Assembly: GCA_951406725.2 (NCBI GenBank)
Contig: OX597821.1
Location: 106,082,001 to 106,146,000, forward strand
Length of the DNA stretch: 64,000 nucleotides
DNA from: Octopus vulgaris
Lineage: Eukaryota
Direction of reading: 5' to 3'
The first letter of the stretch is position 1; each line of letters starts with the position of its first letter. Below are positions 24,781-45,115 of the stretch, piece after piece. The position numbers and the translations under genes were made by a program. Below the pieces are notes generated by a model that ran no database searches, was not told where the DNA came from, and saw only the letters and a program-made list of their open reading frames with translations.

Positions 24781-25886
24781 TCGCCATAATAGATCGTTAG
24801 CCACTACACAATTTTGTTTGCTCTCCTTGTTTTTTGTGTGTACCTTTCTGTAGAAGAGCGTAGGCTCGAATGGTAAAAGACTTTTTCTATTCCTGAGCGT
24901 TACACTAATACATCGGTTTGTTTTGTTCACCACCTGTCTTCGTGGTTTGTTTTTTTCGTAAACTCCCCCTATTTGTGCGTGTGAATGCACGTCTATTTTG
25001 CGTGTTGTGTGCGTGCGTTCGTGTGTCTGTGTGTTTCTAATTTATTTTTACCGCTCCGTACTCGACCGACAGCTTGGTTCTGAAGCATGTGTATATTGAA
25101 AATCGATATACCTAAGCGAACTATCAAAATATATAAGTATATATATATAGGCGCAGGAGTGGCTGTGTGGTAAGTAGCTTGTCTAACACACATGCGCAGT
25201 TAGTCAGTTGCTTCCTGTTCAGCCAGAGTGGACGCGAGTCAACCAGCTCCGTCCAATTAAAGAAAAAAGACCAAAAACGGAAAGTTGTCGAGGTAAGTGA
25301 TTTTGTTTATTGTGAGTTGGGCATAATTTATTGCGTACCAATTATTATTTCAGTAAGTTGTGTCCAACTCTGAGACAATTTCGCCTGCTCTCGGCGGCTG
25401 CCGTTTTTGTGTTCATTGAAAAAAAAAAGAAAAAACAGTGGAGGGGCGTATCCTCGGAATTCAATACAGTTACTGTTAAAATTACCGTTGGCGGTAGCCA
25501 GTGCTGTGTTTGGGTTTGTTGAATTTATTCCCTTGTCAGAGTACTTCGCAAGAAAATTATAAAAATAAGCCACTATTGGATTACCTTTCGGACCCATTTT
25601 TGTGGAGGTTGTGTTGCAGTTGCGGCGTTCCAGGTTCAACCCAGGCCGGGAGTACCGCAAGGCCAGAATATTTTTGCTGTGTTTTTTCTGTTTATTAACT
25701 TTCTTTTGAACTTCATTTAACCCCCCTTTGTTTTTTTTTCTTTATTGCGACTTTCCGTTAATTTCTTCCCTTCTGTTGTGCTTCCTCCTTTTTGTTTTTT
25801 CAAAAATCTATCAAATTTTATTTGGACTTTTGAACTTTTTTCTTCCTGCTTTTTGAGTTTAATTTGAATATATTTAAAAAAAAAAC

Positions 25887-27123
25887 ATGGCAATGAAAAA
25901 TAACAAAATTTTGGAGTGGGAAATCATACCACCTAAAAAGTGGTTAAAAGACCGTGAAGATAGGACGGTGGTGTTGAGAACCTACTCCAAGGCACTCGAC
26001 ACCATCGCCCTATTCGAAAAGACGGCAGTTCAAAAAGAGTTGGAAGAGTATTTGCCAACAATTAAATTCATTTCCAGGGGTGTCAAATATGCAACGGTGT
26101 GGTTGCTATTTGACACCCCTGAAGAGGCTTGCAAATTTTCTAGCAAACCCCTGGAGGGTAAAGAAATCTTATTCCTGCCCACGTACAAAAAAAGAAATTG
26201 ATGAAAGCTTGGATCTGCGGACTGCCACCCGACATAGAACCCGAGTGGATAGAGGAGACTATCCGCCGGGGTCTGGGTGACAGCGAAACTAAGCTCCTCA
26301 ATGTAAAAGTTCTTCCTGCGGCTGCTTGGGTTGGGTCAAAAGCAATTTTGACCCTGTGGACCCAATCAGCCAATCTGGTTCTTCCAGACTTTTTGAAAAT
26401 GGCCGGGTGCAGGTACGCGGTGATGCTTGAGGGTCGCCCCCCTAAGTGTCATCGGTGCTTGGAGTCCGGCCACATAAAGAAGAACTGTCCTCGGGAACAA
26501 AATAGGATCCCGGAACAGTTAAGTAAAACCCCTCTAGAAGAGGGAACGATAACGGCCGAGAAAGCAGAGGACTCCTCAAATAGAGGCCGAAAGAGGAAGG
26601 TGAGCAACAATGGGTGCTCACCAAAGGATAATAGGGATGAGGAGAGGAAGGCGAATCTTCCAGCCACGGAGGAGACGCACCCTCCCTCAGATGAAAAGGA
26701 AAAAAAAAGAAAAAGAGGAAGAAAAACGGGACATTACCGGCTGTCAGTGTAGCACCGGAATGTCCCGGAACTACGTCGGTTGGGGTTGTGCCACCGACAA
26801 GAGAAGGAATACCGTTCGCGGGAACTGTGCCGCCAACGAAAGAACTAAACGTATTGGTCCTCTTCTATAGAGGAGGAGAAATTGAAAAAGTGATGGAAGA
26901 GCACTACAAGGGAGCACCTTTAGCCTTCACACAGGACCCCGAATGGCCTCCGCAGGTAGCTGTGGAGGCCGTGGCGTTCGACGTGACGCTTGGGCTAAAG
27001 GAGCTCAATGAAGATTATAACTTGGTCCCGGGCGACGCGAACTCGGAACTTGATTACGTTCTGAGGGAGGCGTGGTTGATGGTGGAGGGCGCGGGCACAA
27101 GCTATTTCGAGGACGATATGTAA
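25887..27123 (+). CDS. LINE ORF1/Gag-like CCHC zinc-knuckle protein, ~412 aa if two A-run frameshifts are repaired
   Basis: Three ORF-track pieces join by -1 shifts at A7 (~26187-26193) and A9 (26700-26708); motif CHRCLESGHIKKNC; homologous to the ORF at 43.0-43.8 kb. Confidence 0.75.
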
Positions 27124-27134
27124 TTATTGAACTG

Positions 27135-27264
27135 TTATTATTAGTAATGGACTTAAGTCCAAAAACTGAAAAATTGTAAGAGGATTAATACCTCGTTTTT
27201 TATTAATAATGGACTGCTAAGTCCAAAAATTGGAAAAATTGTAAGAGGTTTAATACCTCGTTTT
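27135..27264 (+). repeat. Two tandem ~65-bp repeats in the element's 3' UTR
   Basis: taatggact..taagtccaaaaa.tg.aaaaattgtaagagg.ttaatacctcgtttt twice. Confidence 0.9.
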
Positions 27265-27497
27265 GTGTTTATCTTTAAAAAGAACAATGTCCTCGTCCAG
27301 CCCGCAAAGCTAACTTAATCTGTGTACTGCCTTTATGGCAAATGTTTTGAAATAAAGTAGCTTGTTTGCCAACCATATTGTTCTGGGTTCAGTCCCACTG
27401 CGTGATACCTTGGGCAAGTGTCTTCTACTATAGCCTCGGGCCGACCAAAGCCTTGTGAGTGGATTTGGTAGACGGAAACTGAAAGAAGCTCGTCGTA

Positions 27498-27541
<44 letters not shown>

Positions 27542-27776
27542 CGTGTGTGTTTGTGTGTCTGCGTTTGCCCCCCTAGCATTGCTTGACAACCGATGCTGGT
27601 GTGTTTATGTCCCAGTCACTTATCGGTTCGGCAAAAGAGACCGATAGAATAAGTACTGGGCTTACAAAGAATAAGTCCCGGGATCGAGTTGCTCGATTAA
27701 AGGTGGTGCTCCAGCATGGCCACAGTCAAATGACTGAAACAAATAAAAGAGTAAAAGATATATATATATCTATATA

Positions 27777-28383: not shown

Positions 28384-28790
28384 AGGAGTGGCTGTGTGGT
28401 AAGTAGCTTGCTTACCAACAACAGGGTTCCGGGTTCAGTCCCACTGCGTGGCACCTTGGGCAAGTGTCTTCTACTATTGCCTCGAGCCGACCAAAGCCTT
28501 GTGAGTGGATTTCGTAGACGGAAACTGAAAGAAGCCCGTCGTATATATGTATATGTATATATGTGTATGTGTGTGTGCGTTTGTGTGTCTGCGTTTGTCC
28601 CTCCCCCCAGCATCGCCTGTCAATCGATGCTGGTGTGTTTACGTACCTGTAACCTAGCGGTTCCGCAAAAGAGACCGATAGAATAAGTAATAGACTTAAA
28701 ACAGAATAAGTCCTGGGGTCGATTTGCTCGACTAAAGGGGTACTCCAGCATGCCCGCAGTCAAATGACTGAAGCAAGTAAAAGAGTAAAA
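28384..28790 (+). mobile_element. SINE family A
   Basis: aggagtggctgtgtggtaagtagcttgc...gtaaaagagtaaaa. Confidence 0.9.
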
Positions 28791-42459: not shown

Positions 42460-43951
42460 CTGGACCAAACACATGGACAAACCAGAGGAGACAAACAATG
42501 ACAGACAAAACAAAAAAGTGGGGAAAGATTAAAATCGAATGAAAAGAATGGTAATGATAAATGAAAAGGTAGAACGACGTCAACTCGAGCCCCACATTCA
42601 TTGAACATTTTGAGAAAGAGTTTGTAAACAGTTATTCAATTTCTGTCTCTTTGTCCTTGCTGTTTGCTGCTTGCATTGCATATTCAGTGTTCTTTTAGGG
42701 ATTAGCTATTTTCTGGCTGTCTGTGTTTCTAAGGATTTTATCTGCGTTCCTATCTCTTCTTCTGAGCTTTTTTTTTGTTTCTTTGTCCTTGTATATTGCT
42801 TGTGTTGTATATTCAGTGTTCTTTTTTGGGGTATTTTTTTCCTTCTTGCTGTCTGCGTTTGTAATGTATTTTTTCTGCATTCGTATCTGTTCTCTGTGCA
42901 TTCATGTTAAACTTTTCTCTTCTTCCTCCCTGCAACTGACAATTCCTCATCACTTACCTCTGGCGAGCAATTCTCCTTCTCCACAGTGTTCCTGCTTCTC
43001 TTTCTCTTCACTTGGAGCTTCCTCGTTAGGCTTCTCTTGCTGTACCTGTGGTTGATCCTGTTTTTTTTTTTTCCTTGTGCTTCAGGTTGAAGGGCCTGGG
43101 GCATGTTTTCCTTATATGCATCTTCAGTCTGCACTCGAAACATCTTGGGATTCTATCTTGGCCCGAGACTCTCAGTTTTGCCTCATCCGGCAGAATTAGA
43201 AATTCTGGAATTACCTCCAGTTTCGCTGGTTTCGCTTGAATTGTCGCCCGAAGACTCCCTCCACACCAGTTCTGCACTTTTTACTCCTCGAACTTCAGGA
43301 TATTGGAGCAATCGTGCCAGAAGCCACGCCGATCTAATTTCAGGTGGATAACTTTCTATTGCAAATTTTGTGGGTTTTTTTTGCCAAGGTATGAGGGTAC
43401 AAGAGCCAGCTCCTTCGTCTGCAGGGTGAGCGCGGAATCATGCCTAGCGTCGTATTCTGACATGAATTGTACCTCCACGGTACCGAATTTCTTTCCTCTT
43501 TTCATGAATGCCACCTTGAACATAATAGGCTTCAGGGCCTTTTCAATTTCTTCCGTAGATGCTATCTCTAGTTTCTTTGTTGTAAGGGATAGTGTTCTAT
43601 AAATTATCGTTCTTTTTCTTGTTTCTTCTGTGGCTTCCTTGGGGGAAGTTAATCTCTCATGTTTGCTCCCACTCCTCGCAAAAATGGTTGGAATTTTTCA
43701 CGGCCCCTGATCTGATGTTGGATCTTCTTTGCTTTTTACCGACCGCTGCTGCATAATCTTCGACACTTTCTTCCGAGTCGCTTTTGTACTCCGAGTCGAC
43801 GTTCTCCAGGGGTTCCAACACGTTAAACAAATCACTAGTCATTTTGTCCGGGCACAATTCCCACACAGAATGCAAATAACTCGCCCCTAACGGGGGAAGA
43901 ACTAGTGCACCAAGCTTGTCCAACGAACAATGTGTCGAAAGACACTAACTG
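42460..43951 (-). mobile_element. Decayed Tx1/L1-like element: ORF1 followed directly by a LINE-type 3' tail
   Basis: Zinc-knuckle-like CFECRLKMHIRKTC; tail ttgtttgtctcctct shared with 44050-44100. Confidence 0.7.
42900..43842 (-). pseudogene. ORF1/Gag-like zinc-knuckle protein with stops and frameshifts
   Basis: KRTIIYRT, FMKRGKKFGTVEVQF, LVPSY, LSPEIRSAW and RIPRCFEC align in order with the 25887 protein. Confidence 0.75.
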
Positions 43952-44047
43952 TTTTTAAACACGAGGCAGTCCCAATGGGAAAAACTGCAACAAAACGATA
44001 TCAACCACTAAATAACCATCCGCATCTCAAAGGCGTAGCTCGCAGAC

Positions 44048-45115
44048 TGTATTTCTTTATTGACTATAGGGGCATACATAGAGGAGACAAACAAGGACAG
44101 TTACAATAAAGGGGCGGAGTTACAAACATGATTCAAAAGGTACAATGAAATCGAGCAAGTGAAATCGAATGAAATTTATAAAATTGGATGATTATAATAA
44201 AAATATAATCTTCGGGTTTTTATTTAACCCGGATATTTTCTCTTTTATCCTTTGAAATCCGCTTTTGTTTTTGTCCTCCATATTTTCTTACCTTTTTCCG
44301 TCTTTTCACCTTCACCGGCTATACTAGCACGGCTCAATTTACTCTCGGTATTCTTACAACAGTCGTCCATTTTTTCGTGAACATTCCTTGGAAAAGGCAC
44401 TTTTTGTCCCAACGGATCTTACAAAGCAGGTGGCAGTTAAAATAACTCACCAACCGGCTTCCAGAGACAAAAATTGCCTGTCTTGAATCCCCTTGCACGC
44501 GTCATCCATTCTGTGTCTTTCAGTGTGGCTACTAAATAGAAAAAAGGCCCCTTCTTTTCCTTGTTAAGGGAGGAAGTCTGTACAAACTTAATTATGGACT
44601 CAGTTGAAAGTCGTACTCTTTCCGTCCACATCAGTTTTTCCACATAGGTCATCATGTCCCTAAGCTCCTCACAATGTACGACGACGTGCGCGATATTTTC
44701 ACTGACGCGCCCGCACCTCGGGAAAATGAGGGAGGTATCAAACCCGTGTTTCTACAGCCTCTCTGTCGGATCGGTAAGGCCGATCGGTAGAACTACGAAG
44801 CCAGGGATTTCTGGACGTTATCAACATACCTCGGCCCGAATGTCTATCCGAACAGGCTGGTTAGCAGTTCCTCATCGAAGCCTAGAAACTCCTCCAGGAT
44901 GTCGTCGGACTCATGCTCTACCAGCCCTCTATAAAAATCCGGAGTGGTAGCCCCGCCGCCGGTACCGTTCGCCCGGGAGAACAAAGTGAGGGCTTGTCTG
45001 CACTCCTTCTGCCATTCTCCCATTCTAGGTCCCCGCTTGATCCATGCGCCTACGTCGTTGTCTCTTTGATCAAGACAATATATTTTACGTGCTCCACCCC
45101 ACCCGTATTTCAAAG
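44048..45115 (-). mobile_element. Tx1/L1-like LINE 3' fragment (ORF2 C-terminus and 3' UTR)
   Basis: DFYRGL...PRCGRVSENIAHVVVHC (zf-RVT-like) ...WMTRARG; tail gtccttgtttgtctcctctatgtatgcccctatagtcaataaagaaata. Confidence 0.75.

Follow-up and report, generated by a model that had tools for sequence, protein, structure and literature searches.

A Family of ORF1-only Retrotransposons at One Fixed Base of a SINE Head in Octopus vulgaris and Its Likely Helper LINE

The window, a 64,000-nucleotide stretch of the Octopus vulgaris genome (contig OX597821.1, positions 106,082,001-106,146,000 of the forward strand), contains a short interspersed element (SINE) of ~420 nt that is interrupted by a 2172-bp insert at 25183-27354. 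The evidence makes it highly probable that this insert is a copy of a family of retrotransposons without long terminal repeats (non-LTR) that encode only open reading frame 1 (ORF1), occupy one fixed base of the SINE head, and are likely mobilized in trans by a 5.45-kb long interspersed element (LINE) of the L1/Tx1 type. A first-pass annotation, made from the window alone, had recognized the insert dividing the SINE and had read it as a retroelement without endonuclease or reverse transcriptase (RT). Both points were confirmed: direct repeats flank the insert, and no match to an endonuclease or RT protein was found within it.

Results

A DNA search of the assembly (G000), in which 40 of 2714 candidates were scored, returned 25 near-full-length matches, comprising the window copy and 24 others at 92-98%, together with 12 copies lacking only the first 360 nt and three partial ones. 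The usual element length is 2.23-2.27 kb, and the window copy, ~2% from its nearest match, is shorter than most. Exact family 3′ ends were counted 216 times, 200 of them directly followed by exact AAGTAGCTT, and exact junctions between the SINE head and a 5′ untranslated region (UTR) of the window-copy type were counted 106 times; as exact patterns were used, both counts are lower bounds. Over 1.5 kb, divergence among the youngest copies is 0.07-0.5%. The multiple ~2.2-kb copies with fixed ends that had been set beforehand as the test of the first-pass proposal are thus present, and the objection that the insert might be a single copy falls. The description of the element as young holds for the family but less so for the broken window copy. 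With an encoded ORF1 protein (ORF1p), no ORF2, and many copies with fixed ends and target-site duplications (TSDs), the family shares these features with the HAL1-like class.

All 30 loci inspected end on AAGTAGCTT, at the same base of the SINE. Upstream lies the SINE head at 27 loci (25150-25171 in the window, where the insert and its host SINE are on the plus strand) and the 3′ end of another element at three; downstream lies the SINE at 29 loci (27365-27759 in the window) and another element at one. Genome-wide, the junction of 3′ hairpin and target was found 926 times versus 0 for the reversed pattern, and the empty site occurs 67,944 times as an exact pattern, so that the 926 junctions counted fill fewer than 2% of the sites. 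The target SINE is also present empty twice in the window itself, at 28390 (+) and 62818 (−). Strict single-base targeting had been missed in the first-pass annotation, and its expectation of different TSDs among copies therefore gave the opposite result, the duplication being identical at every locus.

Comparison of full-length elements revealed a shared prefix of at least 9 bases in 69 of 73, and the duplication is accordingly AAGTAGCTT(G), 9-10 bp in length (25172-25181 and 27355-27364 in the window). An 11-bp TSD had been annotated at first. The 11 flanking bases, aagtagcttgt, do match (25172-25182 and 27355-27365), but the 11th is probably coincidental because the extra T is also present at the 5′ junctions of L098, L110, and L119, whose targets lack it. 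The next five bases (CTAAC or CTTAC) belong to the element, since they mismatch the local target in 26 of the 70 scorable full-length elements; in the window the 5′ UTR opens with a CTAAC that is carried by the element and imitates the target sequence next in line. Because the five bases rebuild the target site, they account for head-to-tail arrays, of which L068/L069 is an example. Young elements begin with CTAAC and are mostly found in the CTAAC variant of the SINE (40 of 55), with empty sites of both variants being common; this bias reflects either age or a microhomology preference.

The host SINE flanks of 29 copies showed a mean divergence of 8.6% versus 2.5% for the elements (L030 was omitted, its flank not being SINE), and elements 0.2-0.5% apart were found in SINEs up to 8-30% apart. 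Because flank and element divergence are uncorrelated (Spearman −0.13; Mantel p 0.91), the insertions are independent events at one fixed base.

Inspection of the host SINE reveals TGGCTGTGTGG at 25160-25170 (+) in its head and GGTTCAGTCCC at 27386-27396 (+), which we take to be A-box-like and B-box-like motifs, respectively. Insertion between the two would disable the SINE promoter, insofar as the boxes, assigned by eye, are correct. A further motif, also judged by eye, is presumably CORE-like. No tRNA was detected in the target SINE by ARAGORN or Rfam. OR2 is named as an octopus CORE SINE (PMC4758252), and the target SINE, with its putative tRNA head, may be a tRNA-derived CORE SINE of this kind.

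The ORF1 of the insert (25887-27123) encodes 414 amino acids in intact copies. It is uninterrupted in L067 and L100 and open with an in-frame insertion in L124, and the same open frame, at 420 amino acids, was present in six entries when the top 150 out of 11,789 protein candidates were examined. In the window copy, two one-base frameshifts (at the A run 26187-26193 and near 26698) leave three stop-to-stop pieces of 104, 196, and 142 amino acids. The single zinc-knuckle frame described at first therefore stands for intact copies but not for the window copy. The CCHC zinc knuckle (26447-26488) was the only Pfam domain found in ORF1 (zf-CCHC, E 0.0044, falling slightly short of the curated threshold). 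An AlphaFold model of residues 1-205, built on a 10-sequence alignment (predicted local distance difference test, pLDDT, 75), contained two RNA recognition motif (RRM)-like domains, predicted at residues 14-103 and 104-185 (25926-26442), together with the knuckle, thereby supplying the structure prediction that had been proposed as a check. The top Foldseek matches to this model were tandem-RRM proteins, and comparison with the La RRM gave a VIA Z of 9.7 and a root mean square deviation of 2.4 over 82 residues. A single-sequence fold of the 414-residue protein (pLDDT 38) was discarded. Counts of charged residues agree with the basic stretch and acidic C-terminal domain noted at first (26490-27123): residues 206-300 form a basic linker with 22 Lys/Arg, and residues 301-414 an acidic domain with 22 Asp/Glu and 7 Lys/Arg. 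This C-terminal part is alignable among ORF1-only families and matches no known family; an Atlas search with the acidic domain gave no match. The Atlas look-alikes of ORF1 were CCHC and ZCCHC3-like RNA-binding domain clusters (0.90-0.92).

The layout is that of a type I ORF1p, with a predicted RRM-RRM-CCHC order. Type I proteins (RRM plus CCHC) are associated with Tx1-type elements (PMC5203782). The Transposase_22 domain that marks the L1 type II ORF1p of mammalian HAL1 (coiled coil, RRM, and C-terminal domain) was not found in ORF1; because the ORF1 type differs, the proposed independence from mammalian HAL1 is supported. A homolog search returned two Octopus sinensis proteins only, 72% identical over the N-terminal part, and an alignment-based search returned no longer proteins carrying this ORF1, a null result of limited weight. 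The annotated O. sinensis gene LOC115225585 is an ORF1 of the ORF1-only clade (72% identical), and the lineage has thus been annotated there as a host gene.

The ORF1s of elements without ORF2 form one clade (support 100/100; SH-aLRT 100) on a long branch. It holds at least five families, each 64-69% identical to the window family, and its ORF1s are 25-32% identical to those of the autonomous families sampled. The tree, in which long branches meet, singles out no parent LINE. Longer, endonuclease- and RT-bearing copies, which would have made the insert a deletion product, were not encountered: ORF2 was found in the 1.5-kb flanks of 0 of 30 sister-family loci, and 0 of 13 full-length ORF2-bearing elements carried an ORF1 more than 31% identical to that of the half element. 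Among copies with an open N-terminal frame, the ratio of nonsynonymous to synonymous divergence (dN/dS), another check proposed at the outset, was 0.09-0.27 in nine of 10 family pairs, dS being saturated in the tenth. Between subfamilies of the window family dN was 0.011-0.022 versus a dS of 0.11-0.14, the bootstrap pN/pS never exceeded 0.54, and synonymous sites differed by 40-75% between families. ORF1 is maintained by purifying selection, and the low dN/dS together with the large synonymous divergence indicates a lineage that has long replicated without ORF2 while its ORF1 was kept functional.

A candidate helper occupies the same site. L061 is 5455 bp long and contains a 467-residue ORF1 and an intact 1133-residue ORF2 with Exo_endo_phos, RVT_1, and zf-RVT domains and a YADD motif. 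It shares with the half element the target, the duplication, the 5′ CTAACC, and the 3′ end TGCC-N5-GGCA...GAAATA, so that the autonomous LINE with the same 3′ hairpin sought in the first-pass annotation does exist. Exact 3′ ends of the L061 type numbered 108. Sorting of 98 junctions, drawn from the first 100 listed of the 926 and with array members counted singly, gave 52 ORF1-only elements, 13 with ORF1 and ORF2, six ORF2-only truncations, and 27 that were short or unassigned. At one SINE site (L068/L069), seven 2-kb ORF1-only junctions in a row are followed by a full LINE; this array (L068-L070, G000:C1:223689309-223715246) has an inverted copy nearby. An apurinic/apyrimidinic (APE) endonuclease, an RT, and a C-terminal zinc domain place the helper in the L1/Tx1 group, and the nearest solved relative of its ORF2 is human L1 ORF2p (E 1e-66; R2, E 6e-20). 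The helper also has a type I ORF1p and a target preference, which are characters of Tx1 (PMC5203782, PMC4494074), and on these characters it likely belongs to the Tx1 clade.

Two further LINE families were observed. The first, L176-L210 (e.g. G000:C4:93803118-93828600), is intact, with a 1145-residue ORF2 61% identical to that of the helper, and inserts in (ATT)n, where it forms tandem arrays of ~5.87-kb units with many open ORF2s. The other, at L144:425-5777, is also autonomous but degraded, with an ORF2 52-65% identical to that of the helper, and lies head to head with copy L006. The best ORF2 matches to an Argonauta protein came not from the helper but from another family, one that has (ATT)n as its target.

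The 3′ end of the insert comprises a TGCC/GGCA hairpin and a GAAATA terminus (27328-27354; TGCC-tttat-GGCA proper, 27328-27340) and lacks a poly(A) tail. The hairpin had been placed just before an AATAAA; it is present, but the AATAAA straddles the junction, the first two A residues of the right duplication completing it. Upstream of the hairpin, GCAAAGCTAACTT (27304-27316) reads, but for a bulge, as the target AAGTAGCTTGC in reverse complement. At least seven exact bases of AAGCTACTT were found in the 3′ UTR at 76 of 135 distinct junctions versus six of 675 shuffles, mostly 40-49 or ~80 nt from the end. As the junctions are related, this anti-target signal counts as two target classes rather than 135 tests. 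The motif is bulged in the window family, and a relative that targets (ATT)n has TAATCA at the corresponding place. The 3′ UTR also contains two copies of a 65-mer (27138-27264), in agreement with the tandem repeats first noted; other loci have one or two. An 85-nt segment between two AATGT repeats is missing from the window copy alone among 30 loci compared (27286-27290).

The long 5′ UTR reported at first is 704 nt (25183-25886). Within it lie a splice donor-like GTAAGT (25293-25298) and a GGGCGTA motif (25444-25450). Several 5′ UTR types that are unrelated to each other, that of the helper among them, carry a donor-like GTAAG 65-115 nt after the start, and four UTR types share a GGCGTA motif roughly between +230 and +270. 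Donor-like RGTRAG was present between +70 and +160 in three of eight 5′ UTR clusters versus 0.7 expected, with others just outside that range. For a 5′ UTR intron, the spliced joint was absent from contigs, one of which runs through the donor site unspliced; none of the public records that contain the element sequence is registered as RNA. Unrelated 5′ UTRs are present on copies L026-L029, and the family 3′ end is joined to other ORFs in L121, L131, and L142. The same UTR types on different ORFs show, at the level of sequence, that families exchange their 5′ UTRs and 3′ ends as modules.

One A is lost from an A8 run in 24 of 40 copies and from an A9 run in 14 of 40. Homopolymer indels comprised 46 deletions and seven insertions (n = 53), and nine ORF2 copies, which have no run longer than six, had no such indels. 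The longer A run at the first site was present in contigs of all six public runs examined. These data are compatible both with assembly error and with slippage of the RT on long A runs.

Elsewhere in the window, at ~42500-45060 (−), lies an old 3′ fragment of the ORF2 of a related LINE (45059-44358, 39% to the helper). Directly after it comes an element whose ORF1 is degraded (43652-42999) and 28-31% identical to each of the two ORF1 types. This element is apparently without ORF2 and is not at a SINE site; it may represent a second ORF1-only lineage with another target.

Discussion

The mechanism that we propose begins with transcription driven by the 5′ UTR of the element itself. The RRM-RRM-CCHC protein would coat its own RNA in cis, which would account for the retention of ORF1, and ORF2p of the helper would recognize the shared 3′ hairpin and end, nick the bottom strand at CTT/AC, and prime reverse transcription; the duplication would result from another cut at a distance of 9-10 nt. 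Given that the AATAAA is completed by the target and that the DNA has no poly(A), the RNA likely carries a few bases of the target at its end, and pairing of these with the nicked primer would explain the exact 3′ junction. In R1Bm, downstream target bases assist priming (cited in PMC7265360), and in TRE5-A.2 experiments showed a strong cis preference of ORF1 with ORF2 supplied in trans (PMC3159450). Each insertion would restore AAGTAGCTT(G)CTWAC on its 5′ side, allowing later copies to stack head to tail.

Several observations weigh against this account. The sole DNA alignment between half element and helper is the 37 nt at the 3′ end (78%, E 0.036). Their ORF1s are 29% identical over 196 amino acids (E 9e-25), and the helper is no closer than two other LINE families, with which identity is 27-28%. 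The value of 29% is notable in light of the failure of a heterologous, 25%-identical ORF1 to support TRE5-A in Dictyostelium (PMC3159450). Folding of the family 3′ end together with read-through target gave no stability beyond that of shuffled sequences (z 0.4 and −0.6). Only two of 40 copies compared with L067 are free of frameshifts, which reflects either homopolymer errors or a small number of copies able to make protein. Mobilization by the L061-type LINE is nonetheless likely.

It is improbable that the family is moved by some other autonomous LINE, as yet unseen, whose ORF1 is closely related, and that the L061 family merely shares its target. The low ORF1 identity to L061, the long branch of the ORF1-only clade, the older ORF2-bearing families at the same site (L064 and L066), and the extent of the sample, which took in 98 junctions out of 926 and the 150 best protein candidates out of 11,789, are all compatible with such a LINE. 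Against it, 13 of 13 sampled full-length ORF2-bearing elements have L061-type ORF1s, 0 of 30 sister-family loci have ORF2, and young L061-type copies lie inside the same arrays. Copying of SINE and insert as one unit, a SINE with a captured ORF1 gene whose position is inherited rather than targeted, is scarcely credible. Every copy is indeed flanked by the same SINE and the hosts are mostly of the CTAAC variant, but the uncorrelated divergence of flanks and elements refutes it, and a single base serves different families and the full LINE alike, one stacking on another.

Doubt of another kind concerns the protein. In 24 of 40 copies, across subfamilies, the shorter A run creates a stop/start overlap, and the family could in practice be noncoding now, its master copies carrying a split ORF (104 amino acids, a TGATG overlap, and 309 amino acids), dead or reinitiated, with ORF1p supplied in trans by other copies. 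This we regard as very improbable. Near-identical copies differ at the run, 46 of the 53 homopolymer indels are deletions, sister families read through the site, contigs from all six public runs include the longer run, and subfamily substitutions are mostly synonymous. A programmed split ORF with TGATG reinitiation was judged unlikely from the first two of these points and the contigs.

Returning to the proposed trans-mobilization by the helper, we would extend it only tentatively, to a picture that we consider rather doubtful: old, self-standing ORF1-only parasites use a foreign ORF2p, and their RNA helps choose the site through pairing of the anti-target motif with read-through target bases, followed by a partner swap with the nicked DNA. 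One RNA strand would then hold the primer and the other the displaced top strand. If true, this would be RNA-assisted targeting in a LINE, with the SINE head as a renewable landing pad.

The elements described here form a natural three-tier system, apparently still active, of SINE target, LINE helper, and coding passengers. In the window family alone the passengers exceed the helper, with 216 exact 3′ ends versus 108. The reason that half-LINEs keep ORF1 becomes testable, since passenger and helper have ORF1s that are 70% different and each is represented by intact copies. A compact endonuclease/RT placing a full-length cargo of 2 kb at a single base of a repeat with 68,000 copies, through recognition of a very short 3′ element, would also be a useful model for site-specific insertion. 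Annotation pipelines would miss half elements because they lack RT and lie inside SINEs. Repeat annotation of O. vulgaris lists 13 recently active L1-Tx1 families with 421 insertions (PMC13282606), among which the half elements may be included; neither an ORF1-only class nor an analysis of targets is described in the accessible text and supplement.

LINEs with ORF1 only and Tx1 elements with specific targets are each known; the literature searched contained no description of their combination, of an ORF1-only family of the Tx1 type, or of a SINE head as target (Repbase entries and subscription papers lay outside the search). "ORF1-present" nonautonomous LINEs are a named class comprising HAL1 (L1), HeT-A (Jockey), and Ag-Sponge (CR1) (PMC5786205), and HAL1 arose several times within mammals (PMC5753468). 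Like these, the octopus elements keep ORF1, lack ORF2, and are multicopy, and they probably keep both ends and need a helper. They differ in having no poly(A), a strict SINE-head site, at least five families, and an ORF1 only 29% like that of the helper; none of the three is from Tx1 in the sources consulted, and mammalian HAL1 has a type II rather than a type I ORF1.

Target-specific Tx1 elements include Tx1L in Tx1D, Tx1-Mar and SINEU-3 in Mariner-N4_AMi, and Keno, Kibi, and Koshi (PMC4494074). As in octopus, these are APE-type LINEs with a multicopy target that is sometimes another mobile element, and they have passengers sharing that target. Their targets, as named in that source, are DNA transposons, LTR elements, small nuclear and ribosomal RNA genes, and microsatellites rather than a SINE, and the passengers are noncoding. 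TRE5-A.2 of Dictyostelium (PMC3159450) is likewise ORF1-only and position-specific; ORF2 of the full element acts on it in trans, ORF1 acts in cis, and a 3′ structure is required, much as is proposed for the octopus elements. TRE5-A.2 is, however, a deletion derivative that shares the ORF1 of its helper, whereas the octopus ORF1 is deeply diverged, and it is targeted ~50 bp upstream of tRNA genes via contact with TFIIIB, whereas the octopus site is a fixed base inside a SINE.
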